Shown here piece after piece: positions 2,676 to 63,516 of a stretch of 64,000 bases of DNA. The notes under the pieces were generated by a model. That model saw only the letters and a program-made list of their open reading frames with translations, did no database searches and had not been told where the DNA came from. Positions within the stretch are counted from its first letter, which is position 1. Every line of letters starts with the position of its first letter. The position numbers and the translations under genes are program-made. Source of the stretch: a virus (taxonomy: Duplodnaviria > Caudoviricetes); the IMG/VR virus record IMGVR_UViG_3300009161_000021; one strand, 5' to 3'.

Positions 2676-5600
2676 TCAGATTCTCCTAACTGTTGCCGTC
2701 ACCTGACCGAGCTTGATAGTTCCGCGAAGACCGCGACGATCATTCTCACCGATGTATATTCCGCTCTGTAAGTAGTTAAATTTCGACCTTTCGAGCGAGT
2801 GGGGCTCAACAACGTAGTTTGATCCTAGAAATCTAGTGTTGCTGGGAATAAACTTCTCTATCATCGCGCCCATTGAAGCATCGAACCACTTGAAAAACTC
2901 GTAGAGCTGCTTCATCTTTATCTTCTCTGTCAGACGATTGAAGTAAACATCTCTCAGGGCGTCAAGACGAGGATAGTCAGGTGAGAATTGAAGCTCGGGC
3001 GACCCGATCGCATCGTCTATCTCATCCAGGGTCGCAAATATCTTGGAGATATCCTCGTCTAGAACTCTGGTCGCTGAGACCTCTATCGAGAATCTAAGGT
3101 CATCAACTGGAACCTCGGACCTTACGGTTTCATAAACAGGAGAGATCTCCGCATTGTCACGAATCGCCTGATCGTAATCCTGGAATCCTCGTATTCTTAT
3201 CTTGTTCGTGGTCTGCGCCTCGTCAAATTGCATCGAGATCACTGACGATGCGACCCTTTCATTAACGATCACCTGCTGTTGATTTCCGAAACCCGAACCG
3301 ATGAGATGAAGGTTGTTTTGCGAGAAGTCGATCAACCTAAGCGATCCACCAGCAGCCGATGATGTCAGCTCTTGGGTGCATGCAGCGTCAAATCTCAGCC
3401 TCTCCCATGATCCAGACATCGTGCGAACGAAGTTGTAGTTTGTGGCTGGATTTTCCACGCCGACGGATTCGACGTTTCTAGCATGCTCGAGAAGCTCATC
3501 GTTGGTGAGAGCTTTTGACCAGAACTTGATCCTTGAAATCTTTCCGCTGAACATCGACTCTTTCGCGTCTGCGGGAATCGACGTTGCGTTAAGGAGCTTC
3601 GAGCCTGCCTCGTACAAGGCCTGCGGACCAACGCAGAAGAACGCTCCTGATGTGTTGTATGACGAGATGGTGTCAACTACAGTACCAGCATCGAAGTAGG
3701 ATCCAGTGACACGCAGGTAGTCGGAAACACTTGGACCCTGGCGAGCAGCCCAGACGTAGTAGGATGAGCTCGGTTCATTCTCAGTCATGTCGCGACCGAA
3801 TGAGACATGCCACGTAGAACCGTCGAAAAGATCGCTTCCAGTCAAAGTAAGACGAAGGTATGGGTTTGATGATCCGTTCGAAGTTGCGACATAGAGATCG
3901 AGAGATGATGTCGCTATTCCGGACGTGGCGACAAGATTTGCGAAAACTCCGTGATGGTTGCTTGGAGATGAGGTTCCGGTGACATGAAACCGGGCCAAGC
4001 TCTGAACGGGCGCGTGATTTACTCCTGGCTCGAATTTGTAGAAAGCTTCGTATGACCATGAACCTGAGGTCATCAAGCCGTCTGAAACCGTGTTTGATTT
4101 TGTCGGAAGACCCGGTTCAACTCGTGAGGCGCTCAAGTATGAGCTTGAAACGAACGGAAGATAGTTCGGGATTCCAGTGATAGAATTGTAGCTGACTGCA
4201 CCTTCGAAGAGAGAACCGCTGAAATTCAGCATTCCCTGAACAACGGATTTGTTGGACCTGTTTGGAAGTATGTACCCGCTCTTTGTTCCGCCGTACTCTT
4301 TAAACTTTAGTATGCTGTCGGGTTCGATTCCAGCAGAACGAATCAGGCTCTTAACAGCGTGCAGGGTTCCTTTCGATTTCATGATGAAAGGAAACTCTTT
4401 GAGAACTCGCCTCCAAATCGTATTTTGAACAGCTTGATACGAAGCTTCTAGATCCATAACTTCGGAGGCCATTGATTCTCCAAGAACAAACCTTGAAGTT
4501 TCAACGTTCCTAAACATGTTCGGTAAGTTAAGACCGTAATGTTGAGCTAGAAATGGAAGCATCTGATCGGATATCGTTCCTGCATCAGAGTAATCCGTTG
4601 TTCTTAGCTTCGAGAAGTGATCAATGAAGCATTTTACCTCATCGAATTGCTTCGCCCAAACATAGAGCAACGAGCTTATGAGCTGAACAGACCCCAGCCT
4701 CGTGTCACGAGGGAGTGTGTTTCCAGAATCGATGCTGTCTCCGACACCTCCGTCTATCGAATCTAGAACGTAGAAGTCCTGCTCCCTGGTAAGATAGTGC
4801 TGCGGGATTAGCTTTGTGATAAGATTCGGGTTATTGGCATCGTATTGGGACGCTGAGGTCAGCAACGACGTGTTAAGAGAGACCACGTCCGGATGATCTG
4901 GGAAAAGAACCGGTGAGTGCTCTATCTTCTCAAAAGTTAAGGGTGATGCAGCGTGCGCCACTCGTTGCGAAGTCGAGTAATTGCTAATAGTGGCATGAAG
5001 TCCATTACCCGAGCTGTCGATAACCGTTGAGTTGTTCGTATACGATCCTGTAGGCTCGTTGAACCTATACAGCAATTTAAGAGATTGCTCAGAGTACACA
5101 GTCGATCGCATGCTGGAGCTTATCTCAAGAGCAGTTCTATTCCTGTGGAAGATACGAAGATCATCAATAGATCCTGAAAGCTTTGAGGCTGGTATGAACG
5201 TGTACGAGCTCCCAACACTGTGATTGGTGCCAGAACCTATCAAAAGAGGGCTCGACTTAAAATCTATCTGACCAATGTACGTTGAGTTGCTAGACGATGA
5301 AACTAGCTCTCCGTTCTTGAAGAGGTAAAGTCGATCGACGCCCGGGCTTCTGTTGAACTGTGCAGCAACAGATTGAAATGTGCCTTTGCTGACCTGCACC
5401 GATGAGGTCATGAAAGCCGATCCGGATGAGACGAAAAAATTTAGATTGCAGGTGCTTCTTGAAGAGCTCTGCGAAAGAGCTAGTGTGAACCCTTTATCAG
5501 AACCGCTTAGCTTTTGCAGAATTATTTGGTTTCCGTTGATCGCCGATGGGACGAACAGCTGCATCTCGACTGTCATCGATGATAAGCCCGGATCAAGTTT

Positions 5601-7574: not shown

Positions 7575-9412
7575 CAGAGTGCCGTCCCGATAATGTCATT
7601 CTGGGGATATCTAAGCTCAAAAATACTTCCGGGTGGTCCAAAGACCACACCTCGCTTCGTGTACTGCTTGACGTTATGAGTCACGTTCGAGTACGTTCTT
7701 TCCTGAATCACCCCACTAAGACTTTCGACCTTAAGGTCGACTAGGGTCAATACCCCGGGGGTGTTGATTATGACGTTCTGCATGTCTGATAGCATGATCG
7801 GCTGATCGATCTGGAAGTTATTTACGGTCAGAATTCCAGTAAGTCTCGAAATAACGGACTGCAGTGTGGTTGATTTGTTGGCGTTAGGTGAAATGAAAAC
7901 AGTGAACTTAACGCGGAAGTTGATCACTTTAGCGTCAAGAACGTCTATCGCATCGCTGATCAGTCTATACTCATTAAGATAGACTCGTAGGTTCTTCTTA
8001 AGAGTATCAGGAGAGACCGTTAAGAATCCCGAGCTGTCCTTCGAACAGATGAAGAGTTGGCTTGCCAGAGGATTGTCTGGATTCGGCCTAACGGCAGCTC
8101 GATAGGCTCTCCCGAGCTTTGTTGGAAGCGTGTACACTCTAGAGATCAGGTCCTCTTTTGTAACGATTCTCTCTTGCTGATTTCTAGCGGCAGGAATCTG
8201 AGAACGAATTTCTTCGAGAGTCGGCGCATTGCTGCCTCCTGAAGCAGGCGAATCGTTTCTAACATCGAACGTGGTTCTGATGGAGGAAGCGACCGACGCA
8301 GGACATGCATCCGGAAATTCCATCTTAAGCGTCTGTATTCCACGAATTGTTCGCGCGGCAACGTTATGAGATGCTCCGCCTCCGTATCGATAAGTCACTG
8401 TTATTGTAGTATTCTCGGGTTTGACGCCCAAAGTTTTCGTGTTTAGAAGCGAGCTTGGGTCGATGCTAAAACGACTTAAAGTTGAAGTTCCGTAGAGCGG
8501 CAGAGCCAAAGTTTCAGGATCTGGAATCGCATCATCAGCCGTGGTAAGAGCAGTTCCACCCCCGAACTGTATCTTGGACTTTCTAGATGTCACATCGAAG
8601 TTATGAACAAATCTTCTTGGAGCCGGAATAACCTCGATGGATCTGGAAACTTCTTCGGAATCGACAGAAAGATTTGGGAAAGTTCTAAAAACGGTGTCCT
8701 GACTTAAAGTTTGAACTTCGTAGTAAACATTCCCTTCTGAGTCAACGACCTCCACAATTTCGCTCGGGTCAGAATTTCCAAGTGAAATTGTGAAAAATGG
8801 ATCTGGATTTGCTGCTATCTCGAAAGATTCGATCGCAATCTTTCCGGATACGCATGAGACGTCACGCTTCATTACGAAGCTTGAGGGATTTCCGGATGCG
8901 TCAACGTTTCCAACCACGTATTTCGACGCAAGCCCACCAAGTCGATTTTTCTCAGCAAAATCGACGTCCTCGGCAGTCGAGAATATGATTCCAGCTGATG
9001 ACGCCAAAAGCGTGCTCTGGAGAACTTTAGGAAGAGTGTCCTCATCTGGGACGTATTCCCCATCGATAAATCTTGAAGGAACTTCTACGAACATCGATAC
9101 TGTAGCGACCGAAGGAGAAGCTCCTTTCGGTTTGATTCCAGCTTCAGTTATCATCCTTGAAACGTTCGCGTTCTCGACAGCTGTCGACCATGACATTTCT
9201 CTGAACTGGTGATCGAGATAAAATGACATCGAGTCTGCCACGGAAGCAGCCATATCGAGCATCAAACCACCGACGCTTGCTTCCGAGAAGTCTTGTATTT
9301 TGTCTCCGAAATACGTTCTAGCGTATCTCAGGAGATCGCCTCTGAAAGAATCGAAATCTTTGTTAAGATACGTTCGATTTCTCAAGTTCTTAAGCTGCTG
9401 GTCACCCGCCAT
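7574..9412 (-). CDS. Baseplate wedge subunit (T4 gp6 / baseplate J-like)
   Basis: 612 aa. YLNKDFDSFRGDLLRYARTYF...DFSEASVGGLMLDMAA, VTYRYGGG, GGSNAPTLEEIRSQIP...RIVTKEDL motifs typical of gp6/J. Confidence 0.85.
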   Translation of the reverse strand: MAGDQQLKNLRNRTYLNKDFDSFRGDLLRYARTYFGDKIQDFSEASVGGLMLDMAASVADSMSFYLDHQFREMSWSTAVENANVSRMITEAGIKPKGASPSVATVSMFVEVPSRFIDGEYVPDEDTLPKVLQSTLLASSAGIIFSTAEDVDFAEKNRLGGLASKYVVGNVDASGNPSSFVMKRDVSCVSGKIAIESFEIAANPDPFFTISLGNSDPSEIVEVVDSEGNVYYEVQTLSQDTVFRTFPNLSVDSEEVSRSIEVIPAPRRFVHNFDVTSRKSKIQFGGGTALTTADDAIPDPETLALPLYGTSTLSRFSIDPSSLLNTKTLGVKPENTTITVTYRYGGGASHNVAARTIRGIQTLKMEFPDACPASVASSIRTTFDVRNDSPASGGSNAPTLEEIRSQIPAARNQQERIVTKEDLISRVYTLPTKLGRAYRAAVRPNPDNPLASQLFICSKDSSGFLTVSPDTLKKNLRVYLNEYRLISDAIDVLDAKVINFRVKFTVFISPNANKSTTLQSVISRLTGILTVNNFQIDQPIMLSDMQNVIINTPGVLTLVDLKVESLSGVIQERTYSNVTHNVKQYTKRGVVFGPPGSIFELRYPQNDIIGTAL

Positions 9413-9415
9413 TTA

Positions 9416-9916
9416 TCATCCCGTAAAGTTGAATGTGATTGATAGTGTCTGCTGCGTCAAGTTTGCGCGTGGCACAGAGTAAGTAATTGCTAATTTTATC
9501 TTTGAAAGAGCTGTTAGCCCAGCATCCTGGGGAGTTGCGATAAAATTTTCAAGAATTACGAACGGCATATACTTCGAGACAGCAGCGCTGATCCTTCTCA
9601 TTGCTTCCTGGTCACCGTCTTCTGAAGCAAGCTCATGTAGAATGGGCTTTAGATTAGCTCCGAAATCCACAAATCCGAGCCTCTCATTACGATTAGTGAG
9701 GATCAAGTTCGCTAGATTGTCTCTTATCTGGTCCCCAAGAGAACGATGCATCCTGAAGATTCCATCCTCGGTACTTCCAAGCTCTAGCGGAGTCTTAATT
9801 CCGATCGGAGGGGCGGTGACAACCGCTTTGCTGCGCTCATCAAAGTCAGATTTTTTTGTTCCGACACTGTTGAAGCTGTAAGATCTTGCTTGTGCCACCG
9901 GAGTTCCTCTCAACAT
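9416..9916 (-). CDS. Baseplate gp25/GPW-like sheath initiator (likely true start GTG near 9898)
   Basis: QIRDNLANLILTNRNERLGFVDFGANL...ISAAVSKYMPFV is the gp25 signature; GAGAGGA RBS precedes an internal GTG. Confidence 0.85.
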   Translation of the reverse strand: MLRGTPVAQARSYSFNSVGTKKSDFDERSKAVVTAPPIGIKTPLELGSTEDGIFRMHRSLGDQIRDNLANLILTNRNERLGFVDFGANLKPILHELASEDGDQEAMRRISAAVSKYMPFVILENFIATPQDAGLTALSKIKLAITYSVPRANLTQQTLSITFNFTG

Positions 9917-54046: not shown

Positions 54047-54325
54047 TGGTGGGCCCTGTGGGAATCGAACCCACAACCTTGGGATTACATACCACTTCGA
54101 CTTTCGTCGCCTTTGCAGTTCGTGGTCTGGACTATACCATCACCCTCGTCTTTCTCGTTAGGGTGCAGCCCCTCTAGTCTCTACACGTTCCCTTTCGGGC
54201 TTCGCTCGGGATTGTCATCAGCATTACCTGTTAAGAGTTCCCCGAATTTGGGCTGTGTTCGACAGAGATTTCTCCCTGAAGCTTCCATTGAAAGTCCCTT
54301 GCTCTGCCAGTTGAGCTAAAGGCCC
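54047..54325 (-). tRNA. tRNA-Lys(UUU) interrupted by a group I intron (exon 1 at 54291-54325, exon 2 at 54047-54087)
   Basis: Joined exons give a 76-nt cloverleaf with loop CTTT|TAA and encoded CCA. Confidence 0.9.
54088..54290 (-). ncRNA. Group I self-splicing intron (203 nt, no internal ORF)
   Basis: P1 CUUU|c-aau-g-GAAG with U.G at the splice site; P3 CAGCCC/GGGCTG; P4 TTCGGG/CCCGAG; P7 GACTA/TAGTC; P8 CACCCT/AGGGTG; P9 ACCAC/GTGGT; terminal G. Confidence 0.92.
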
Positions 54326-54996
54326 GTTAAATTTTCTTTTAACTTTTTCGCTCTGAAGTAGTTTGCACCTTTAGGAGCTAAACCAACTTTAATCAGCGCC
54401 TGACGAATTGACAAGCTGCTTTTTAGTGCTTCTGAAAGATCTTCATCACTCACTCTTTTTCTAGAGTTACTTTTGCTTTTATTTCTGCCTCTCCACGTGT
54501 GAGTTAGAGAATGGCAATTTGGGCAAAGAAGCTCTAGGTTCGATCTGTCATTATTATTTGTGTTTCCATCGCGATGTTCAAGCTCTAGAGTTATTTTTTG
54601 TCCGAGCCAGTTTTCTAATCCGCAATGGTTACATTTACCAGATTGTTCACGGAAAATTTTTTCTCTTTTCAAGATGATTGAAAGTTCTTCAAATGAAGCA
54701 TTTAGCTTGACTTCCAATCTGTTTTGATTATATCTTTCGCGTTCAAGCTTTGCATCATTTTTATCGCAATTTGACTTGTGCCCTATCAGAGCCATCTTCG
54801 AACCGAATTTTTTACCGCACCCATCACACTCAAAATCTTTGGGACATTCTCTACCAGACAAAGACTTTGAGACTTTTTCATTTATCTCTTTTCTCTTCGA
54901 TCTAGTCGAAAATGACCTCGAACATTTTGCGCTGCAGAATCTTCCGCTTCCATACGAGGCATCATGAGAGATTGAGCAATTTTCGCATTCGAACAT
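54316..54996 (-). mobile_element. Free-standing HNH homing endonuclease gene 1 (stop inside tRNA-Lys)
   Basis: CNHCG...ELEHRDGNTNNNDRSNLELLCPNCH; N-terminal YGSGRFCS..C zinc modules; visibly AT-rich. Confidence 0.85.
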
Positions 54997-55046
54997 AAGT
55001 TAATCCTCTTGTTTTAGATATTAACCTGAGTTCGAATTTGTGATCT

Positions 55047-55643
55047 TTATTTCGGCTTCACGCCACTTTTTAGCACAATCTCGCAGATGTGATCGAGACG
55101 CTCAACGTGCTCAAAAGCTGACCACGGATCACCAGCGACTGCGCAGACCCCGTGATTCGCTTGCCCTACGATATCATACTGGAGCGACCCGTCCGGTAGG
55201 CACCCCAGATGCACCCCAGTCATATCGCCCAGTTCACGTGATGTTGCCGGCAGGGCAGGTACGTTAGGCCCTACTCGGGTGTACCGGTTCACTTCTGGAA
55301 ACTGTCTGGCGAGCTCCTGAAGGTCCCAACCTGCAAACATTGCTGCAACCACATGGGTCGCGTGAACATGAACGACGGCGCGGGTTTTTGTGAAATCCTT
55401 CTGAATGAGCCAGTGCATATGAAGCTCACCGCTTGCGGTTTGTCCGGAAGGAGCGATTACGCCGTCATCGACAAGCTTGCACTTCACGATATGCTCTGGG
55501 TGGATGATAGTCTTCCTCCAGCCTGAAGGCGTGATGTACAGAGTCTTCGAGTTATTACGACACAGTGAGATATTTCCGTCACGATTTGTGATCCATCCAC
55601 GATCGTAGCACTTCCTCATCACGTCGCCAATTGCAGTTAGCAT
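55047..55643 (-). CDS. Class II aldolase/adducin family protein
   Basis: RDGNISL, YITPSG, SGELHMH, VVHVHATH, ANHG. Start refined to ATG 55643. Confidence 0.88.
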   Translation of the reverse strand: MLTAIGDVMRKCYDRGWITNRDGNISLCRNNSKTLYITPSGWRKTIIHPEHIVKCKLVDDGVIAPSGQTASGELHMHWLIQKDFTKTRAVVHVHATHVVAAMFAGWDLQELARQFPEVNRYTRVGPNVPALPATSRELGDMTGVHLGCLPDGSLQYDIVGQANHGVCAVAGDPWSAFEHVERLDHICEIVLKSGVKPK

Positions 55644-55719
55644 GCTAATTTTCTCCGCTCGTAAATATGAAAACGGCTGGCAACCAGTGCCAGCCGTCGC
55701 TCTATTTTGAGCTTTAGGA

Positions 55720-55827
55720 TCACTCGGCCGTAGTGGCAGAGCTCGTATCAGTGCCGGTATCGTCCTTACCACCGGTGCAACCACCGAGGAAGAGAGAACC
55801 GAGAACTGCAAGAATGACGAACTTCAT
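55720..55827 (-). CDS. 35-aa lipoprotein (not in ORF track)
   Basis: AAGGAG RBS; MKFVILAVLGSLFLGG-C-TGGKDDTGTDTSSATTAE with a lipobox. Confidence 0.7.
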   Translation of the reverse strand: MKFVILAVLGSLFLGGCTGGKDDTGTDTSSATTAE

Positions 55828-55883
55828 TGTGCTTCTCCTTTGAGACGTTAATTTTAACTCTTTTACTGAGACTATAAACAGAG

Positions 55884-55959
55884 TGGTGCCCCGGGCGGGA
55901 TTCGAACCCGCCCTACAGAGATTTTAAGTCTCCTGACTCTGCCGCTGGTCTACCGGGGC
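55884..55959 (-). tRNA. tRNA-Leu(UAA) with short variable loop
   Basis: 76 nt; GGAGA-CTTAAAA-TCTCT; discriminator A; CCA encoded. Confidence 0.85.
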
Positions 55960-56013
55960 CAACAGAAAGACTATACTGGTGACGAGTTCAATTTGCAACG
56001 AATATTTAACAAG

Positions 56014-57048
56014 ATGAACGGAAACCTAAGAAAGCTGATACGCTTGATGCTGGAATCGGACGCCACCGCGCCACTACCAGCCCACCATGTCCCAGCAGAT
56101 CCGTTTGTGCAGAGACGAGCGAAGATGGAAAGTGTGGCCAAAGATGTCGCAGAAGAGATGGGATTGGCCGACGTTCGATACCTGTCAAGATCCAAGAGGC
56201 TGTACGGAGCTTACACATTCTCAGCCGTCGACGAGAGAAATGAAAACGTAATTCTTAAGATTCAGCCCCTGAATGAGATCGAGAGCTACAAACGCGCCCA
56301 GCAAGCGATTGTCAGACTACCAGACCGGGTTGCTCGCCATATGCCAGTGATCTATAAGATCAGAACGCTAGAGGACCTGGGAGTTCCGCTTCCAACTGAT
56401 GACTTTGGAAGTCCAGAGAATCTGGGTGTCATTGTCATGGAGAGACTCGAGGAGCTACCGGGAAATATGTTCGATCTCATTACCCAGCCAGCGACTCGAT
56501 CCATCCACTCTTTAGGCTCTCTTGTTAGCGATCGTGAAGCTTTCTCAGCAGTCGTTGATGAGGCAATGAGCAGATCGAAGCGCGCGGTCGACGCAGCGAT
56601 TGCCGGTGCTCCAAGAAAATCAGACCCAGCCGAAGAATTCAGCAGACTTAAGAAAATGCTGGTCTCCGCATCTTATGACCCTGAGGTAACAGATCAAGGT
56701 AGTGGAATAATGCTCTCGGCCATTGACGGACTAAGATCGGCGATTGGAAAGAAAGTTGAGCTCTGGTGCCGCGCGCTTGGAATCACCAGACCTGGTTCAA
56801 TACAGTCGTTGAATCAGATGATAATGAGCTCAATAACGAGCTTGCTCGGACGTCGAGCGGTTCCGAAAGAGCCGACGAAAGAAGTCCCTGGACCGCTTGG
56901 AAGAATCAAGGGAGTCCGGGAACTCGTGAGCGCACTTGAGGATCTAAAGTCAATGAACATCAATCCGTCTGACGTTCACGGAAACAACATCATGCTAAGG
57001 CCGGAGACAGGTGAGCTTGTTCTGGCTGATCTAGGTCACTTCACCTAA
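56014..57048 (+). CDS. Protein kinase-like (APH/RIO-like) protein
   Basis: VILKI, VIYKI, IVMERLE, SDVHGNNIM (catalytic loop), LADLG. Start refined to ATG 56014. Confidence 0.7.
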   Translation: MNGNLRKLIRLMLESDATAPLPAHHVPADPFVQRRAKMESVAKDVAEEMGLADVRYLSRSKRLYGAYTFSAVDERNENVILKIQPLNEIESYKRAQQAIVRLPDRVARHMPVIYKIRTLEDLGVPLPTDDFGSPENLGVIVMERLEELPGNMFDLITQPATRSIHSLGSLVSDREAFSAVVDEAMSRSKRAVDAAIAGAPRKSDPAEEFSRLKKMLVSASYDPEVTDQGSGIMLSAIDGLRSAIGKKVELWCRALGITRPGSIQSLNQMIMSSITSLLGRRAVPKEPTKEVPGPLGRIKGVRELVSALEDLKSMNINPSDVHGNNIMLRPETGELVLADLGHFT

Positions 57049-57268
57049 TCATCTCATCGATAATTTCCTCTATCATCTCGCGAAGCCTCATCTGCTTGAA
57101 GTATTTTGCGATCTTACGACGAACGTCAGGTTCCACCATGAGACCCGGCGCGTCAAGCATGTCAGGCTCGTGACCATAAGTCGGGTCATGTGGTGCCTTT
57201 GTCTTCGCGCGCGGCTCCGAGAGTTTATGCCTCCCGGCTGGTGACTCACCTGACGTTCTCCATCTCAT
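57041..57268 (-). CDS. Hypothetical protein
   Basis: 75 aa, ATGA-coupled; ends LREMIEEIIDEMIR. Confidence 0.55.
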   Translation of the reverse strand: MRWRTSGESPAGRHKLSEPRAKTKAPHDPTYGHEPDMLDAPGLMVEPDVRRKIAKYFKQMRLREMIEEIIDEMIR

Positions 57269-57414
57269 TTCTTTTCATCCTTTGTGTACCACAGAAATGA
57301 TGCGCACGCAATTAGCAACGTGACATCTGAGATCCAGAAAAATGTTCGACCCATCGGATCAAGCAGCATCCACATGAAGAGCCTGAACCAGTAGTCGACA
57401 ATCTTAAAAATCAT
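57265..57414 (-). CDS. 49-aa membrane protein (not in ORF track)
   Basis: MIFKIVDYWFRLFMWMLLDPMGRTFFWISDVTLLIACASFLWYTKDEKK; ATGA overlaps at both ends. Confidence 0.55.
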   Translation of the reverse strand: MIFKIVDYWFRLFMWMLLDPMGRTFFWISDVTLLIACASFLWYTKDEKK

Positions 57415-58592
57415 CTACAGCTGCCGTAAAGATCGGTCGTAGCCCCTCCAGGAACGTTGACTTCAACAAACGGCTCATAGCAACCTTCCGAGTTGACGTT
57501 TCTAGTGTCAGTCCAGATGAGAGAGCCTCCAAGATACACACTCACCGTAACGTCGTTCTGACCCATGTAGACGGAACCTGGGTAGTCGTGCACGTAGACC
57601 GTGTAGGTCCCTCGTGCCGGTGAGTCGATGTTGATGTTCTCGGGACCAGTTCCCATGATGTCATCGAGATCGAGAACGGGGTTGTCAGCAGTGCCTGCGG
57701 CGCCCCAGTTAAGTCCGCCCCAGGTGCAGTTCGCGTAATAGCAGTCGGATGTTCCCGTCAGGACCCCACCGTCATCCAGGAGGTGAAGGTCCATGTCATC
57801 TCCCGAGTAGGTCCAGAACATCTCGATCCAGAGACCGCTACCAGCGGTGGCGTTCAAGGTCGCCTGACACGGCTCCGACTCTAGGCCATCGTTGTCGACC
57901 ACTACAAGCTCTCCGATGTATTCTCCAGCGACATCAGGAACAAAGTTACGACGATTCGCAGTTCCAGCTGGCGTTGTTGCTGTTGCACCCGCTGGTGACG
58001 AGATCAACGTCCAGCGATAATCAACGATTGAACCATCTGAATCGTATGAAGAATTTCCGACCCAATCGGCTGATCCGTGAATCGCCTCCACCTCAATCGG
58101 ATCAACGGAGCAGACTGCAACGGGTTGCGAAAGTGGCGGTGCAGTATCGCCTGTCTCTCCCGTATCGACATTGATCTCTGCGTGAGCTAGCAGAGGCACA
58201 CTAGTATTAGGATGGCTAGGATCGTTAGAAAGGATTTGAAGGACACCGCTTGTTTCACTCCCATCTGAATTGTAAGTGATCGTTAGCTCAACAGAATCAT
58301 CAGGCTCATATGTTCCCGTCAATGGCTCAAGGAGCGTGAACGTCTCTCGTCCCTCTCCTATCTGCATCGCTGTCACATTGAGAGCGACAGAACCCACCGA
58401 TGACATCGTTATGATGCTAGCTGAGCTCTCACCCGCTGGAACGATCCCAAAGTCAATTGACTCCGGGTCGACCTGGATCGCAGGCGTCCCATCCGGAGGC
58501 GGATCTTTAACCGGATGAAGCTCAGAATCCATGCAGCCGTTCTCGAGTGGCAGCAGAAGGGCGAAAAGTAGTAAACGTGGGATTCTGTTCAT
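57411..58592 (-). CDS. Exported probable lipoprotein with Ig-like (ASH/choice-of-anchor D), PKD-like and YfaP/DUF2135-like domains
   Basis: Signal peptide ending NGC; DPESIDFG..., YRWTLISSP, FVPDVAGEYIGELVV, DMDLHL...DCYYANC...LDLDD...GPENINI. Confidence 0.65.
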   Translation of the reverse strand: MNRIPRLLLFALLLPLENGCMDSELHPVKDPPPDGTPAIQVDPESIDFGIVPAGESSASIITMSSVGSVALNVTAMQIGEGRETFTLLEPLTGTYEPDDSVELTITYNSDGSETSGVLQILSNDPSHPNTSVPLLAHAEINVDTGETGDTAPPLSQPVAVCSVDPIEVEAIHGSADWVGNSSYDSDGSIVDYRWTLISSPAGATATTPAGTANRRNFVPDVAGEYIGELVVVDNDGLESEPCQATLNATAGSGLWIEMFWTYSGDDMDLHLLDDGGVLTGTSDCYYANCTWGGLNWGAAGTADNPVLDLDDIMGTGPENINIDSPARGTYTVYVHDYPGSVYMGQNDVTVSVYLGGSLIWTDTRNVNSEGCYEPFVEVNVPGGATTDLYGSCR

Positions 58593-58621
58593 TGTCGCTC
58601 CTCTTCTAACTATAGGAGGAG

Positions 58622-59194
58622 CTAGGGACGATTTAATGTCTCTGACGGGTCAACGACAATAATATCATCGAAACCCTCTTCTCGTGTCGGTAGTTCCAGA
58701 CGATTAAACATGCTTTGCATGATTGCAGGGCTCAAGTTTTTGTCCTGGAGCTCTGCAGCACGGAGATCGACCGATCGTTGCACTTTGCTCTCCATCCCGC
58801 GATAGTCAAAGAAGACAGCAATCTTCTCATATTCTCTCTCACGTCCCGCGATGGCTTTCAGAGCGCTCTTTCTGGAACCGACCCCCATATTTGTCATGTC
58901 AACGACTATATCCTGACCCGACTGGGCTGCTCCCGCGACACGATTACGAAATTCTCTATCAACTTCCTTTGAGATGTGACGACCCGCTGGGCCAAACGTG
59001 TCATTGTATTTGATTCCGTGAGGAGCTCGAACTGCATCAACAATGTCATCCCTGCTGATGATATAAGCGTCACGCACGTTCTGTCGAACCCAGTGCGACT
59101 TTCCGACTCCGGGAGGTCCGACAAGAACGTAAATTTTGGGTCGAGAGATGCTCTCACGAATAAGCTGGCGAAGGAGAGTCGGTGTAGAGCTCAT
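58622..59194 (-). CDS. P-loop kinase (AAA_33 / polynucleotide kinase-like)
   Basis: VLVGPPGVGKS, ISRDDIV, IVVDMTN, R motif, EEGFD. Confidence 0.8.
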   Translation of the reverse strand: MSSTPTLLRQLIRESISRPKIYVLVGPPGVGKSHWVRQNVRDAYIISRDDIVDAVRAPHGIKYNDTFGPAGRHISKEVDREFRNRVAGAAQSGQDIVVDMTNMGVGSRKSALKAIAGREREYEKIAVFFDYRGMESKVQRSVDLRAAELQDKNLSPAIMQSMFNRLELPTREEGFDDIIVVDPSETLNRP

Positions 59195-59206
59195 AATTTT
59201 CTCCTG

Positions 59207-59506
59207 CTACCTCTTGATATGGGACAAGTAGACCTTGTATCGAATTTTTCCGCCCTTTGTCTTCCCAAGTTTCTTATATCCATCACCGTGATCATCGCTT
59301 ATATCATATCTCGCGCTGTGATCGTCGATAGCTTTCGTCTGAGCTTTCTGGATAGCATCAGCGATCTCCTCATCATGATCATGCGGCCGGTGCGGGACCT
59401 CAACTTCGTAAGAAATTTCAGCCGGAGGGTCGTTATCCTTCGACTCACGAAACAATTCTTCTTTGATGATCTGGCGGAGCTTGATTTCTGATATGTGAAT
59501 TGCCAT
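59207..59506 (-). CDS. Hypothetical protein with N-terminal LRQIIKEE motif
   Basis: 99 aa; MAIHISEIKLRQIIKEEL. Confidence 0.6.
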   Translation of the reverse strand: MAIHISEIKLRQIIKEELFRESKDNDPPAEISYEVEVPHRPHDHDEEIADAIQKAQTKAIDDHSARYDISDDHGDGYKKLGKTKGGKIRYKVYLSHIKR

Positions 59507-59666
59507 TTGTTCTTGTCCTGATGCCGTTAAGTATGTATCAGATAAAAGAAAAGCGGCTTTTGGAATACCTCCAGAGCCGCGAACTGTGCCAACCTACGAT
59601 TTGGACGGGATTTCGCCATGCGAGCATGGTCCCGTGTATACGATCTCTGATCAGGAGCCGTTAGTA

Positions 59667-59753
59667 CGGAGACGGCAGGATTCGAACCTGCGACCAACTT
59701 TCGCCGGTGGTCCCTTAGCAAGGGACTGGTTTGAGCCACTCACCCACGTCTCC
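59667..59753 (-). tRNA. tRNA-Ser(GCU), CCA not encoded
   Basis: GGAGACG/CGTCTCC-G; GTCCC-TTGCTAA-GGGAC; long variable arm. Confidence 0.92.
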
Positions 59754-59758
59754 AAAGT

Positions 59759-60748
59759 TCAGAAGGAAGCTGGATTTCCCTTTGTGGACCCGAGAAAGCT
59801 CACAATATCAGTCACCTGCTCAGGGGTGAGAGACTTACCAAGCTGGTGCTTTCCCATCATGTAGACGGCTGCGCCCAGGCTCTCGGAAGATGCATCGTGG
59901 AAGTAGGGTGCCGTCTCAGTGGAATTGCGAAGGGAAGACACCTTGAAGACCATCCGATCGGTTTCCTGTCCCGTCACTCCGAATCGCCCCTGGTCTGCCT
60001 GGTTGGGCCAAGGCTCCACAGCACCGAGCTTCATGAAAGACGCACCACCGAGAAGAGTGCCGTTATGACATGCCGTGCAACCGACCTCCATGAAGGTATT
60101 GAGGCCCCGCTTCTCGTCGTTGGTGAGAGCGGCATCGTCACCCTGGAGGAAAGCGTCCCACCTGGAGGGTGTGACCAGCGTTCGCTCGTAGGCACCGATG
60201 GCGACACCGACGTTCTCAAAAGTGAGGGGATCCTTCTCACCCGGGAATGCCTTCGCGAACTCAACAACGTAGGTGGGATCCTCCTTGAGGACGCGGGCAA
60301 CGGTCTCGGCATCCGGCATCGCCATCTCACCCGCAGCGAGGATAGGACCGAGTGCCTGCTCCTCGACCGTCTTTGCTCGACCGTCCCAAAACTGGGAAGC
60401 CTGTCCTGCTGCGTTGAAGACCGTCGGAGAGTTACGACCTGCCGGCGTCATCTTGTGACCCGGGGAGAGCTTATGCTCATCAGCGCCGTCCTTCGCAACA
60501 TTATGACAGGTGGAGCATGACATGTTGGCGTCGGCCGAGAGCTGGGTCTCAAAGAAGAGACGGCGACCGAGAAAGATCAGATCAGGAGAAGGCTCCGCTC
60601 CCGCAATGAAGAAGTTTTCCGGGAGCGGCTGGAACGCTCCAAGCTTAGTACGATCAACCGTGACAGCATCCGTGATCTGCGGATTTACGGGCTCCGCAAC
60701 GTTGCTGGCATCGGAGCATGCGATGAGCAGGGAAAGAATCGCGATCAT
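59759..60748 (-). CDS. Di-heme cytochrome c peroxidase (CcpA/MauG family), lipoprotein
   Basis: Two CxxCH motifs (CSTCH, CTACH); LGRRLFFE, RNSPTVFNA, QFWDGRA, FKVSSLRN, APYFHD; signal MIAILSLLIA-C. Start refined to 60748. Confidence 0.92.
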   Translation of the reverse strand: MIAILSLLIACSDASNVAEPVNPQITDAVTVDRTKLGAFQPLPENFFIAGAEPSPDLIFLGRRLFFETQLSADANMSCSTCHNVAKDGADEHKLSPGHKMTPAGRNSPTVFNAAGQASQFWDGRAKTVEEQALGPILAAGEMAMPDAETVARVLKEDPTYVVEFAKAFPGEKDPLTFENVGVAIGAYERTLVTPSRWDAFLQGDDAALTNDEKRGLNTFMEVGCTACHNGTLLGGASFMKLGAVEPWPNQADQGRFGVTGQETDRMVFKVSSLRNSTETAPYFHDASSESLGAAVYMMGKHQLGKSLTPEQVTDIVSFLGSTKGNPASF

Positions 60749-60752
60749 TTTA

Positions 60753-61100
60753 TCAACCCTCGGTGGAGGTGTCGGTAGAGGAACCCGTATCAGAGGAGCC
60801 AGTGTCAGGGGGAACCTCACCGCCCGTGTCACCGGTATCAGGGCACGCCATCTCGGTCTGAGCGACCGTTCCATCCTCCTGGCAAGAGCAGGAGTTGCAG
60901 CCATCCTCGCAGGTCCACGTGGCGCCGACGTCGTAGGTGCCCGTGGCGTCGGTGCAGGTGACAGTCACAGCAGTATCGACCGAGCTGGTATCACCCTCAC
61001 CGCAAGCTGCGGTATCAACGGTGCTGGTCTTGTCATCATCTCCGCCGCATGCTGCAAGGGTGAGGAGAGGAAGAAGAAGTAGGACATTAGCGAGCTTCAT
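60753..61100 (-). CDS. Lipoprotein with pacifastin-like Cys-rich domain and DT-rich tail
   Basis: MKLANVLLLLPLLTLAA-C; C...YDVGATWTCEDGCNSCSCQEDG...TEMAC. Start refined to 61100. Confidence 0.7.
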   Translation of the reverse strand: MKLANVLLLLPLLTLAACGGDDDKTSTVDTAACGEGDTSSVDTAVTVTCTDATGTYDVGATWTCEDGCNSCSCQEDGTVAQTEMACPDTGDTGGEVPPDTGSSDTGSSTDTSTEG

Positions 61101-61134
61101 GTTGATTGTTCCTTTGTTGTTGATTGCTATCATC

Positions 61135-61166
61135 AAAAAAGCCGGCATCTATTATTAGATGCCGGC
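61135..61166 (-). terminator. Rho-independent terminator
   Basis: Perfect 10-bp stem GCCGGCATCT/AGATGCCGGC plus TTTTTT, downstream of tRNA-Thr. Confidence 0.85.
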
Positions 61167-61170
61167 CGTG

Positions 61171-61244
61171 TGGTGCCCCCTGTCGGAATCGAACCAACAA
61201 AGCCTGATTACAAAACAGGTATTTTACCATTAAATTAAGGGGGC
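61171..61244 (-). tRNA. tRNA-Thr(UGU)
   Basis: GCCCCCT/AGGGGGC-ACCA; CCTGT-TTTGTAA-TCAGG. Confidence 0.88.
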
Positions 61245-61248
61245 AAGA

Positions 61249-61337
61249 TGGCGGAGAGCGTGGGACTCGCACCCACAACGGGCTCTTAACCCGCGACAGT
61301 TTTCAAGGCTGTTTCCTCATCTGGCCGGATGCTCTCC
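61249..61337 (-). tRNA. tRNA-Ser(UGA)
   Basis: GGAGAGC/GCTCTCC-GCCA; loop CTTGAAA; long variable arm; atypical T-loop TGCGAGT. Confidence 0.85.
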
Positions 61338-62068
61338 ATATTCTTGATGTAATGATTATATCTTCTGCTGAAGCAATGTTCAAGATAAAAATCAGGCATT
61401 AGTGAGCGAACTCTACGACCGACGACTTGTGGATGTTCATTACAACGTTCAGCTAATAACTGAACCCATCCATACTTTGAAAAGTCAATCTCTTTAGATT
61501 GATGAAGCTCATTCACTTTTTGAATAAACCTTTCCTGAAAGTTAATCTTAGTTTTTTCAAACTCTCGAAAAACTTTCTTCTTATCACGTTTTATCTCAGT
61601 CGTCTGAGCTTTCTTCGTTTCAATTTTGAGTTGTCGTTCAAATCTCTTCGCTTCTTGGGTCTTGTGCCTTTCATTATAACCAGCATTACCCGGTCTTAGT
61701 GATGAAGCATGCTTTTCGTTTCCTTTGTTCGACCAATTTCGATATTTTGGAGTTAGAGCGTGACAGTTTGGGCAAAGAATGCGAAGGTTACTTAAAGAGT
61801 TATTATCATGATTTCCATCGATGTGATCAACTTCAAGTATCGAAGCACCGCACTCTCGTGTTTTTTCGTATCCACATGACGTGCATTTGTAATTTGACTT
61901 CCAAAGTAAGAACGAGCGAATCGCTCTTTGTGGGAAATCTTCCCAATTGGAAGTGATTACGTCATCGAACTTTTCAAAGAAAGAGATTCCGCTGCCGTGA
62001 TTTGCTGCGTAATGACTCCTTAAAGTTCTAAGAGAATCTGTCAAAAACTCACAGTCGCATGAAAACAT
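61286..62068 (-). mobile_element. Free-standing HNH homing endonuclease gene 2 (stop inside tRNA-Ser)
   Basis: CTSCG...LEVDHIDGNHDNNSLSNLRILCPNCH; AT-rich. Confidence 0.85.
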
Positions 62069-62135
62069 TCGAACTCTCGGTTCTAAATATACTCATACGA
62101 TTGATTCAGGTTAATCAACTTTCTAATTTTATAGG

Positions 62136-62219
62136 TGGTGCGCGAAGAGGGACTTGAACCCTCAAGCCGTCAGGCACAGGCTTCTAAGACCTGCGTGTAT
62201 ACCATTCCACCATCCGCGC
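62136..62219 (-). tRNA. tRNA-Leu(UAG)
   Basis: CAGGT-CTTAGAA-GCCTG; long variable arm; CCA encoded. Confidence 0.92.
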
Positions 62220-62225
62220 GTCATG

Positions 62226-62302
<77 letters not shown>

Positions 62303-62306
62303 AATG

Positions 62307-62381
<75 letters not shown>

Positions 62382-62382
62382 A

Positions 62383-62458
62383 TGGTGGCACTAACTTGAT
62401 TCGAACAAGTGACCGAGTGTGTATGAAACGCTAGCTCTACCGACTGAGCTATAGTCCT
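62383..62458 (-). tRNA. tRNA with CAU anticodon (Met or Ile2), degenerate acceptor stem
   Basis: Good D and T arms; loop TTCATAC; acceptor GG-ACTA vs TAGTGCC (1-nt deficit) and a C.A mismatch in the anticodon stem. Confidence 0.6.
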
Positions 62459-62462
62459 TCGA

Positions 62463-62554
62463 TGGTGGGAGAGGTCAGATTCGAACTGACAGTGTTTGCC
62501 CTGAGGGAACGGGTTTACAGCTCGTCGCTAGACCACCGCCCTAGCAGCTCTCCC
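62463..62554 (-). tRNA. tRNA-Tyr(GUA)
   Basis: GGGAGAG/CTCTCCC-ACCA; loop CTGTAAA; long variable arm. Confidence 0.88.
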
Positions 62555-62562
62555 AAAATCTG

Positions 62563-62871
62563 TTAGGGAGCCGAGGTGTCGGTGCCGCCGGAACCAGTGT
62601 CGCTGGAAGCGCCAGTATCAGTTGCGCCGGTGTCGCTACCAGCACCAGTGTCAGCCCCGGTATCCTGGGACGCCGTATCCTGCGGAGTCGAAGTATCGGC
62701 AGTATCGCCACCGCTGGTGTCCGCGGTGTCAACCGGATCGGTCACGGCAGTGTCCTGACCAGCAGTATCCTGAGGGCAGGTAACAGTGTCGTCGTCCTTG
62801 TCATCGTCATGATGGCAGCCAGCAAGGGCCAGAGCTGCGACTGCAAAAGCAGAGATCGTGAAGTTACGCAT
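62563..62871 (-). CDS. Lipoprotein composed of acidic DT(A/S/G) low-complexity repeats
   Basis: MRNFTISAFAVAALALAG-C lipobox; about a dozen DT dipeptides in the 84-residue mature part. Confidence 0.8.
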   Translation of the reverse strand: MRNFTISAFAVAALALAGCHHDDDKDDDTVTCPQDTAGQDTAVTDPVDTADTSGGDTADTSTPQDTASQDTGADTGAGSDTGATDTGASSDTGSGGTDTSAP

Positions 62872-62909
62872 TTTTCTCCTTGATTGTGCACTCTCGTGCG
62901 ATTGTTGAA

Positions 62910-62984
62910 TGGTGGACCGTACCGGAATCGAACCGGTCCTTCAGGCTTGCAAAGCCCGTGTGCCCCCGACAACACTTACAGCCC
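62910..62984 (-). tRNA. tRNA-Ala(UGC) with non-canonical D arm
   Basis: GGGCTGT/ACGGTCC with the G3.U70 identity pair; CGGGC-TTTGCAA-GCCTG; CCA encoded. Confidence 0.85.
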
Positions 62985-63516
62985 ATTTATCATTGATGTA
63001 TTTCTGAACTTTATCTTGTATTTCGATTTTGTATCTGCTATGCATGTACTGATGATGAGTTGGACAAAGAGGAACTAGATTTTTTGGATCATTATTGTCG
63101 TGATTCTCATCACAATGATGAACAGCTACAATCTTATTTTCGTCGCAAACGCAGCAAACTTTATCATGGTATTTCCACGCAATAGCTACGTAATGCTTCG
63201 GTTCATTGATCCTGTATTTTTCTGATTTTGCTTTTCCGCCTAAAGAATTTGCGCAGCTTCTTGAGCAAAAGTATTTTTCTTTAGACGGAAATTTCTTTGC
63301 TCTCTCTTTAATCATAAAGAGTTTGGAGCAAGTCTCGCAAAAGACTTCAAATTCTTGAATCGGCCCAAGTCTTTTTTCTACTGAAAGTGACTGCGCGAGT
63401 TTTAAGCTCTCAGTGTTTTCTTTTTTTGGATTTTTTTCGCACCATCTAGAGTGATTAGCTTTATCAGACAAAGAATCAAACTCAAAATTATTCTTGCAAT
63501 GTTTGCATGTCCACAT
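62941..63516 (-). mobile_element. Free-standing HNH homing endonuclease gene 3 (stop inside tRNA-Ala)
   Basis: CCVC...VAVHHCDENHDNNDPKNLVPLCPTHH; N-terminal CKHC and KYFCSRSC modules. Start refined to ATG 63516. Confidence 0.8.

Follow-up and report, generated by a model that had tools for sequence, protein, structure and literature searches.

Homing endonuclease genes that end inside tRNA genes: probable nuclease-tRNA cassettes in the tRNA array of a freshwater phage

INTRODUCTION

The homing endonuclease gene segB of phage T4 is situated between the genes for two transfer RNAs (tRNAs), tRNA-Ile and tRNA-Arg, and its product, SegB, cleaves inside the tRNA genes of phages that lack segB (PMC2330249). 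It was proposed in 2008 that maturation of tRNA-Arg cuts the segB messenger RNA (mRNA) between its last codon and its stop codon, thus lowering expression, and a similar processing idea is mentioned for the F-Tfl enzymes of phage T5 in the same paper (PMC2330249). The removal of a stop codon by tRNA maturation is, therefore, not a new idea, T4 segB being its precedent. Promoters embedded in T4 endonuclease genes are thought to favor the retention of these genes (PMC2988022). Here, we describe three predicted HNH homing endonuclease genes, HNH1, HNH2, and HNH3, each of which ends inside the tRNA gene downstream of it, in the tRNA array of a tailed phage (IMG/VR record IMGVR_UViG_3300009161_000021). 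The whole stretch of 64,000 nucleotides (nt) that was analyzed is referred to as the window; it encodes a baseplate wedge protein, the DNA runs that match it are freshwater metagenomes, no RNA run matches it, and a search for near-identical phage records found none. An earlier note on this DNA had claimed that the three HNH genes take their stop codons from the tRNAs that follow them, that they form cassettes with these tRNAs, and that tRNA maturation removes the stop codon from the nuclease mRNA. The first of these claims is confirmed below and proves to be general, the second is supported, and the third is treated as a hypothesis with a published precedent.

RESULTS

Three HNH genes without stop codons of their own

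Each of the three genes lies flush against a co-oriented tRNA gene and lacks a terminator codon of its own, such that its translation would end at the first in-frame stop that the tRNA provides (Table 1). HNH1 ends 10 nt inside tRNA-Lys(UUU), which starts at 54325; its stop codon TAG (54318-54316) is U8-A9-G10 of the tRNA, and tRNA-Lys positions 1 to 10 are the last 10 nt of the gene, stop included. HNH2 ends 52 nt inside tRNA-Ser(UGA), which encodes the last 17 codons of the gene together with its stop TAA (61288-61286). HNH3 ends 44 nt inside tRNA-Ala(UGC); the last two bases of a conserved Trp codon (TGG) of HNH3 are tRNA-Ala +1 and +2, and the tRNA encodes a tail of 13 amino acids (aa) and the stop TGA (62943-62941).

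Every gene of the tRNA array in question is on the minus strand, and the placement of the endonuclease genes, directly upstream of a co-oriented tRNA within a tRNA cluster, is of the SegB type. HNH1, HNH2, and HNH3 all match PHROG HNH endonuclease families; in Pfam, HNH2 reaches the threshold of the HNH family, HNH3 is matched below threshold by HNH_2, and HNH1 is recognized solely through a zinc finger; a His/Asn motif and Cys pairs are visible in the three translations. With a GC content of 0.36-0.40 between flanks of 0.5-0.6, the genes form AT-rich islands. None of them is inside an intron or an intein, HNH1 being upstream of exon 1 of its tRNA, and Rfam found no group I core around HNH2 or HNH3. 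ARAGORN called 13 tRNAs in the window, to which Rfam added a group I intron (54106-54302) and a weak tRNA-like match (61252-61338).

Frequency and depth of the overlap among relatives

The survey covered IMG/VR loci (designated L followed by a number) that encode relatives of HNH1, HNH2, or HNH3, and for each HNH open reading frame (ORF) the first in-frame stop and the nearest co-oriented ARAGORN tRNA were located. The set consisted of 190 non-redundant intact HNH ORFs, the close relatives of HNH2 having been retrieved by a profile scan after a single-sequence scan of IMG/VR gave none, and the control consisted of 517 other ORFs of at least 100 aa from the same loci, comprising other nucleases and ordinary genes (encoding, for example, an RF-1 domain protein, RNase H-like proteins, and a hemerythrin). 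A stop inside a tRNA was found for 64 of the 190 HNH ORFs, a lower bound, as are all overlap counts here, because ARAGORN is blind to variant and intron-bearing tRNAs; a further 31 stopped 0-9 nt before a tRNA and 13 stopped 10-59 nt before one, while 82 had no tRNA call within 60 nt. Among the control ORFs, 22 of 517 had their stop inside a tRNA, and a further 52 had it in the 60 nt preceding one. The HNH ORFs are thus enriched overall (64/190 versus 22/517; odds ratio 11.4, p = 5e-23) and when only ORFs ending within 60 nt of a tRNA are considered (64/108 versus 22/74; odds ratio 3.4, p = 1.4e-4); for the HNH3 family, this last count rises to 35 of 40 (odds ratio 16.5, p = 3e-9). The three-of-three pattern of the window is, therefore, more than chance, and it is not the case that homologous HNH genes usually stop before the tRNA, given that 64 of the 108 with a co-oriented tRNA within 60 nt stop inside it. 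More distant homologs in cultured phages (Yersinia phage fHe-Yen9-04, Agrobacterium phage Atu_ph07, Serratia phage BF, and Vibrio phage nt-1) were also inspected, none of which ends inside a tRNA. In L085, a relative free of HNH genes, a NUMOD3-type ORF (9086-9796) ends 24 nt inside tRNA-Ser(UGA) and a GIY-YIG ORF (2139-2879) ends 10 nt inside tRNA-Asn, such that unrelated homing endonuclease families converge on one type of arrangement.

For ORFs entering a tRNA in a random frame, the expectation is a stop in the first 10 nt in 23% of cases and in the first 45 nt in 63%, passage through the entire tRNA without a stop in 29%, and a median depth of 35 nt. The depths in the window (10, 44, and 52 nt) are as expected of a random frame, and what is not random is the lack of an own stop. 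These depths are likewise what would be seen if the overlap were a neutral by-product of compaction, in which a lost stop codon is backed up a few codons on by tRNA triplets such as U8-A9-G10 and weakly constrained selfish genes gather such losses. In keeping with such an origin, other ORFs show the same shallow classes, their stops ending 10 or 15 nt into a tRNA, and the ordinary genes of the window stop just 4-8 nt before tRNAs. Compaction is, nevertheless, an unlikely explanation for the HNH genes, as their overlap is strongly enriched over that of neighboring ORFs and is the rule in the HNH3 family, the frame at the junction is conserved down to about 50% identity, and tails and variant tRNAs are conserved as units (see below).

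The overlaps in the survey are, moreover, shallower than the random-frame model predicts, with 48 of 64 ending within 15 nt versus 47% expected (p = 1.3e-5). Recurrent stop-giving triplets are TA plus G1, TAG at positions 6-8 of the variant tRNA-Ala, and U8-A9-G10, as well as TAA/TAG at positions 13-15, a D-loop TAG, and an anticodon-loop TAA or TGA. In the HNH3/tRNA-Ala lineage, most partner tRNAs have a TAG or TGA at positions 6-11 that arises from unusual bases, and this, together with the bias toward early stops, suggests that a working stop codon is selected. Overlapped tRNAs are modestly less canonical than others (A14 in 66% versus 81%, p = 0.007; T8 in 74% versus 85%, p = 0.02), a comparison that is biased by the failure of ARAGORN to report the most deviant tRNAs. 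Two individual cases may be mentioned: in L014 (~3401-3438), the borrowed stop is the TAA anticodon of tRNA-Leu(UAA) itself, and in L004 (the tRNA-Thr of L004/L012), the borrowed TAA overlaps the end of the tRNA-Thr(UGU) anticodon.

HNH3, its variant tRNA-Ala, and a broken resident tRNA

The conserved body of the HNH3 family ends in Lys-Trp, and what follows it varies by class. Among the 120 homologs listed in a comparison of tails drawn from a large protein collection, the 13-residue tail of the window recurs in 14, down to 57% identity, while 43 end at most 3 residues from the conserved Lys-Trp and 4 read beyond the tRNA-Ala anticodon region. In the short-tail class, represented by L087, the ORF ends in TGG GGA TAG, its stop being tRNA-Ala positions 6-8. 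Across 12 HNH3-linked tRNA-Ala genes, 95% of the cells are paired, 15 of 20 pairs show compensatory changes, and G3:U70 is invariant; neither shuffled sequences nor slid registers came anywhere near the pairing of this cloverleaf. This covariation marks the tRNA sequences within the ORFs as genuine and as being under selection.

The history of the HNH3 site can be read from two syntenic loci. In L085, an ORF of 733 aa is followed by a spacer and a canonical, intact tRNA-Ala (8168-8243). At the corresponding site of L090 (~2640-2665), an orthologous ORF (78% aa identity) and the spacer (80% nt identity) lead into a tRNA-Ala of which no more than the initial 23 nt remain, the break falling in the D loop. 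A short leader comes next, and then an HNH3 homolog (67-69% identity) joined to a variant tRNA-Ala that is the same as that of the window. The window shares the L090 layout, and the HNH3 cassette of L090 is missing at the syntenic L085 site. The orphan fragment upstream of HNH3 is, as the L085/L090 synteny shows, the remnant of the resident tRNA-Ala, whose truncation in the D loop would be no more than an indirect footprint of site-specific cleavage and gene conversion. Similar orphan tRNA-Ala 5′ pieces stand upstream of HNH3-family genes in L104, L108, and L109.

As a tRNA fragment precedes HNH3 and a group I intron is present in tRNA-Lys, the ORFs might be viewed as intron-encoded endonucleases, with the upstream fragment and the downstream part as exons of one spliced tRNA. 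The acceptor strand of the orphan, however, pairs at just 3 of 7 positions with the downstream 3′ strand, which argues for replacement rather than an intron, and the tRNA-Ala downstream of HNH3 is a complete cloverleaf with a covarying acceptor stem of its own; on these grounds, the intron-encoded reading of HNH3 was rejected. HNH1, in turn, is upstream of exon 1 and outside the 203-nt intron, and, as noted, HNH2 and HNH3 have no detectable group I core nearby, which makes this explanation extremely improbable for the set.

The leaders of HNH3-family genes in L092-L112 display several features of their own. At ~20-60 nt upstream of the start, many carry a small ATTGCA/TGCAAT hairpin; the same leaders contain a TATAAATA motif like the T4 late promoter, of which the window copy is devoid, and an ACTCC...GGAG pairing by which the ribosome-binding site could be masked. 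These features resemble the control described for T4 intron endonucleases.

HNH2 and its variant tRNA-Ser(UGA)

The tRNA-Ser(UGA) that terminates HNH2 was undetected by ARAGORN because of its unusual D arm, yet it has a perfect 7-bp acceptor stem and intact anticodon, variable, and T arms. In L172, which encodes an HNH2 homolog of 52% identity, the tRNA has the same odd D arm and compensatory changes in the acceptor stem. The tail encoded by tRNA-Ser(UGA) is common to 13 HNH2 homologs, and five further homologs read the same tRNA-Ser 5′ sequence in another frame, with a TGA in the D loop as their stop; at the HNH2 tail, it is the nucleotides rather than the peptide that are conserved. Also in L172, tRNA-Thr-like and tRNA-Ser(UGA)-like genes are readable by eye at ~1340-1440 and 2184-2270, with no ARAGORN call. 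The phage arrays of the L172 clade contain tRNAs that are missed by standard finders.

The failure of ARAGORN to find two of the three tRNAs and the non-canonical D arms of tRNA-Ser and tRNA-Ala could be taken to mean that the overlaps are an annotation artifact, the tRNAs being pseudogenes or the ORFs not being translated to the stops in question. Such an artifact is highly improbable in view of the compensatory covariation and invariant G3:U70 of tRNA-Ala, the identity of the spliced tRNA-Lys to an intact relative (see below), the intact HNH motifs, and the conservation of the ORFs in hundreds of homologs.

Two consensus matches bear on transcription of the HNH2 region (Table 1). A terminator-like hairpin after tRNA-Thr would end an HNH2/tRNA-Ser/tRNA-Thr unit, and a sigma-70-like match within the HNH2 3′ end could give tRNA-Ser a transcript of its own.

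HNH1, tRNA-Lys, and a group I intron

The tRNA-Lys(UUU) downstream of HNH1 was missed by ARAGORN because a group I intron divides its anticodon; the intron mode of the program miscalled it as a selenocysteine (SeC) tRNA, and the boundaries given here derive from the Rfam alignment and the identity to L086. Exon 1 and exon 2, once joined, are 100% identical to the intron-less tRNA-Lys of that relative, and the 5′ splice site falls after a U that forms a pair with G in P1. Between the end of HNH1 and this splice site are 25 nt, and the intron contains no ORF, such that HNH1 is not intron-encoded. An exact-match scan of IMG/VR with the exon 1/intron junction gave no match. Downstream of each of the HNH1 homologs of 50%, 82%, and 60% identity on L255, L256/L257, and L258, respectively, stands a tRNA-Lys(UUU) whose exons differ but which carries this same intron at an identical position; all of these homologs end in exon 1, at a TAG at positions 8-10 or 16-18, and ARAGORN reports no tRNA at these loci. 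HNH1 and the intron, therefore, occur together in four contexts (the window, L255, L256/L257, and L258), whereas both are missing from L085 and L086.

The latter two loci, whose peroxidase is 81-83% identical to that of the window, have at the HNH1 site an aldolase gene that is separated by ~75 nt of spacer from an intron-less tRNA-Lys; members of the HNH1, HNH2, and HNH3 families were absent from the 21 kilobases of L085 and L086 examined. Homology to the window ends at the aldolase stop and restarts 3-14 nt before tRNA-Lys +1, which implies that HNH1 replaced the spacer and reads over the junction into resident tRNA sequence. As a gapped global alignment of this site fragmented within the spacer, the flank boundaries alone were used.

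Contigs assembled from four freshwater DNA runs yielded fragments only, and one weak joint among them (X4, 54078 to 54297) fits the intron-less tRNA-Lys of a co-occurring relative. Elsewhere, a further group I intron match in a phage tRNA cluster was seen in L015 (6195-6363; 57 bits, cut by the locus end), and a 131-nt Rfam tRNA match in L004 (2820-2950), which implies an insertion of ~58 nt, lies just upstream of an HNH1 homolog.

Table 1. Coordinates of the genes, tRNAs, and other sequence features of the window that are discussed in the text
Feature	Position	Strand	Basis
HNH1, free-standing HNH homing endonuclease gene, 226 aa	54316..54996	-	ORF, PHROG
tRNA-Lys(UUU) exon 1, 35 nt	54291..54325	-	Identical to 5′ part of L086 intron-less tRNA-Lys
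Group I intron, ORF-less, 203 nt, between anticodon positions 35 and 36	54088..54290	-	Rfam RF00028, 56.6 bits
tRNA-Lys(UUU) exon 2, encoded CCA	54047..54087	-	Match to L086
HNH2, HNH homing endonuclease gene, 260 aa	61286..62068	-	Pfam HNH, PHROG
Variant tRNA-Ser(UGA), non-canonical D arm	61249..61337	-	Rfam, only 35 bits, with the selenocysteine (Sec) model; missed by ARAGORN
Sigma-70-like promoter match, 10/12, inside HNH2 3′ end, ~10 nt upstream of tRNA-Ser +1	61355..61383	-	Consensus match only
Intrinsic-terminator-like hairpin after tRNA-Thr, strong	61140..61167	-	Consensus match only
HNH3, HNH homing endonuclease gene, 191 aa, ATG at 63516	62941..63516	-	PHROG, sub-threshold HNH_2
Variant tRNA-Ala(UGC), G3:U70, unusual D arm, full acceptor stem	62910..62984	-	ARAGORN, covariation
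Orphan 5′ fragment of canonical tRNA-Ala, broken in D loop	63568..63588	-	18/21 positions match relatives' tRNA-Ala
tRNA-Ser(GCU), comparison case	59666..59754	-	ARAGORN
Peroxidase gene, stops 4 nt before tRNA-Ser(GCU)	59759-60904	-	ORF versus tRNA call
tRNA-Tyr, comparison case	62463..62554	-	ARAGORN
DT-rich lipoprotein gene, stops 8 nt before tRNA-Tyr	62563-62871	-	ORF versus tRNA call

DISCUSSION

Judged by gene order and conservation, the arrangement is inherited, widespread, and family-specific, with HNH1 joined to an intron-bearing tRNA-Lys, HNH2 to a variant tRNA-Ser(UGA), and HNH3 to a variant tRNA-Ala. The syntenic comparisons, in which HNH1 is absent from L085 and L086 and the HNH3 cassette is present in L090 and missing from L085, indicate that the cassettes are insertions, one of which evidently destroyed and replaced a resident canonical tRNA-Ala. 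We propose that the three genes are probably free-standing homing endonuclease genes joined to a tRNA as cassettes, their cleavage and homing activities being assumed from their resemblance to known endonucleases. The idea of HNH-tRNA cassettes put forward in the earlier note is thus borne out by recurrence beyond chance, conservation in homologs, and insertion as units, and its suggestion that the mobile gene is tied to a tRNA kept by selection is supported by the match between the tRNA-Lys exons and the L086 gene, the covariation of tRNA-Ala, and the L085/L090 synteny.

By analogy with T4 SegB, the nuclease would cut the resident canonical tRNA gene of a naive phage, and repair would copy in the nuclease gene along with a non-target allele, being a different tRNA 5′ half in the case of HNH2 and HNH3 or an intron in the case of HNH1. 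Because the 5′ part of the tRNA is inside the ORF, nuclease and tRNA would be inseparable by recombination (zero-distance linkage), and deletion of the selfish gene would destroy a tRNA on which the phage now depends. As a side effect, an RNase P cut at tRNA +1 of a shared transcript would leave the nuclease mRNA without a stop codon, such that each shared transcript would yield either protein or tRNA, which may keep nuclease levels low. A more far-reaching formulation would be a tRNA gene-replacement drive, in which fused units of several families destroy a resident tRNA, install a cleavage-immune variant on which the phage becomes dependent, and limit their own expression through stop removal by RNase P, thus combining retention with dosage control; in this complete form, the proposal is doubtful.

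Several points weigh against the cassette interpretation. The statement of the earlier note that ordinary genes stop before tRNAs holds for the peroxidase and DT-rich lipoprotein genes of the window but not in general, as, among the other ORFs of related loci whose end is no more than 60 nt from a tRNA, ~30% stop inside it, ordinary genes (RF-1 domain, RNase H-like, hemerythrin) included, and part of the pattern is, therefore, attributable to a general compaction of phage tRNA arrays. The survey relies on ARAGORN. The tRNA-Lys of HNH1 has an unchanged 5′ half, and any immunity would have to come from the intron. Conservation of a cassette within one phage clade (the window and L090) could reflect vertical descent instead of repeated homing. 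Finally, the choice of target, the immunity of the variant tRNAs, and the fate of the transcript are points that we infer.

The overlap may alternatively be viewed as a selected expression brake, whereby cleavage by RNase P at tRNA +1 deprives the mRNA of its stop, transfer-messenger RNA (tmRNA) rescues this non-stop mRNA, and the tagged protein is degraded, such that a toxic nuclease is kept scarce. This is compatible with nuclease-tRNA cassettes and differs as to the reason for the overlap; we rank it as a possible side effect, and as that reason it is conceivable rather than probable. The anatomy forces a choice between protein and tRNA on any shared transcript, there is no room downstream of the ORF for a separate tRNA transcript start, and, as seen in L085, unrelated nuclease families converge on the overlap. 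Transcript processing has been discussed as a brake on T4 endonucleases (PMC2988022), and a related idea has been published for T4 segB and the T5 F-Tfl genes. Set against this, ordinary genes overlap tRNAs too, a stop ahead of the tRNA is kept in 44 of the 108 HNH relatives whose co-oriented tRNA is within 60 nt, and the bias toward early stops and the stop-creating bases at tRNA-Ala positions 6-11 imply that normal termination matters. Furthermore, tRNA transcripts could be made independently of the mRNA from promoter-like sites inside HNH2 and HNH1, which are consensus matches only. Only on a transcript shared by the ORF and the tRNA does the anatomy entail removal of the stop codon by RNase P.

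Phage tRNA arrays turn over fast, for reasons that are debated, and the data suggest that homing endonucleases are among the drivers, as variants that move together with a nuclease gene, and are physically locked into it, appear to have taken the place of entire tRNA genes. Such replacement would help to explain odd, hard-to-detect phage tRNAs, of which standard finders missed two out of three here, and would provide an example of a selfish gene that makes itself costly to delete as well as a natural system for the competition of tRNA processing and translation on one transcript. In genome annotation, an ORF should not automatically be trimmed or discarded because it extends into a tRNA.

Among known systems, T4 SegB offers the closest functional analogy, as segB, too, is a free-standing gene for a homing endonuclease that sits within a phage tRNA cluster and immediately precedes a co-oriented tRNA. 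SegB is, however, a GIY-YIG enzyme, whereas all three proteins of the window are HNH, such that they are not members of its family, and in the T4 record the segB ORF ends 5 nt before tRNA-Arg without overlap. We know of no variant replacement tRNA or orphan fragment described for SegB. The F-Tfl genes of T5 are reported to be HNH endonuclease genes in tRNA gene regions, and HNH1 is ~42% identical over its C-terminal half to genes annotated as F-TflIV; an F-TflIV-type gene in BP32, a T4-like coliphage, ends 6 nt before tRNA-Leu, again without overlap in that record. In an incomplete literature collection, we found no reports of endonuclease ORFs routinely ending inside tRNAs or of conserved units of an endonuclease and a variant tRNA.

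HNH1 and the tRNA-Lys intron, being adjacent and inherited together, resemble the pairs of collaborative (trans) homing, F-CphI with the psbA intron and mobE with the nrdB intron, in which a free-standing endonuclease gene lies beside a gene with an ORF-less group I intron (PMC2790892, PMC6083498, PMC2988022). This likeness is drawn from the genes alone, and the present case differs in that the intron interrupts a tRNA gene, into whose exon 1 the ORF of the endonuclease extends. The cassettes likewise recall the T4 endonuclease genes that contain promoters of their essential neighbors, given that in both a selfish gene embeds a sequence needed by the host and is thereby costly to delete; in the present case, the selfish gene contains a tRNA 5′ part, and perhaps a promoter for that tRNA, instead of the promoter of a protein-coding gene.

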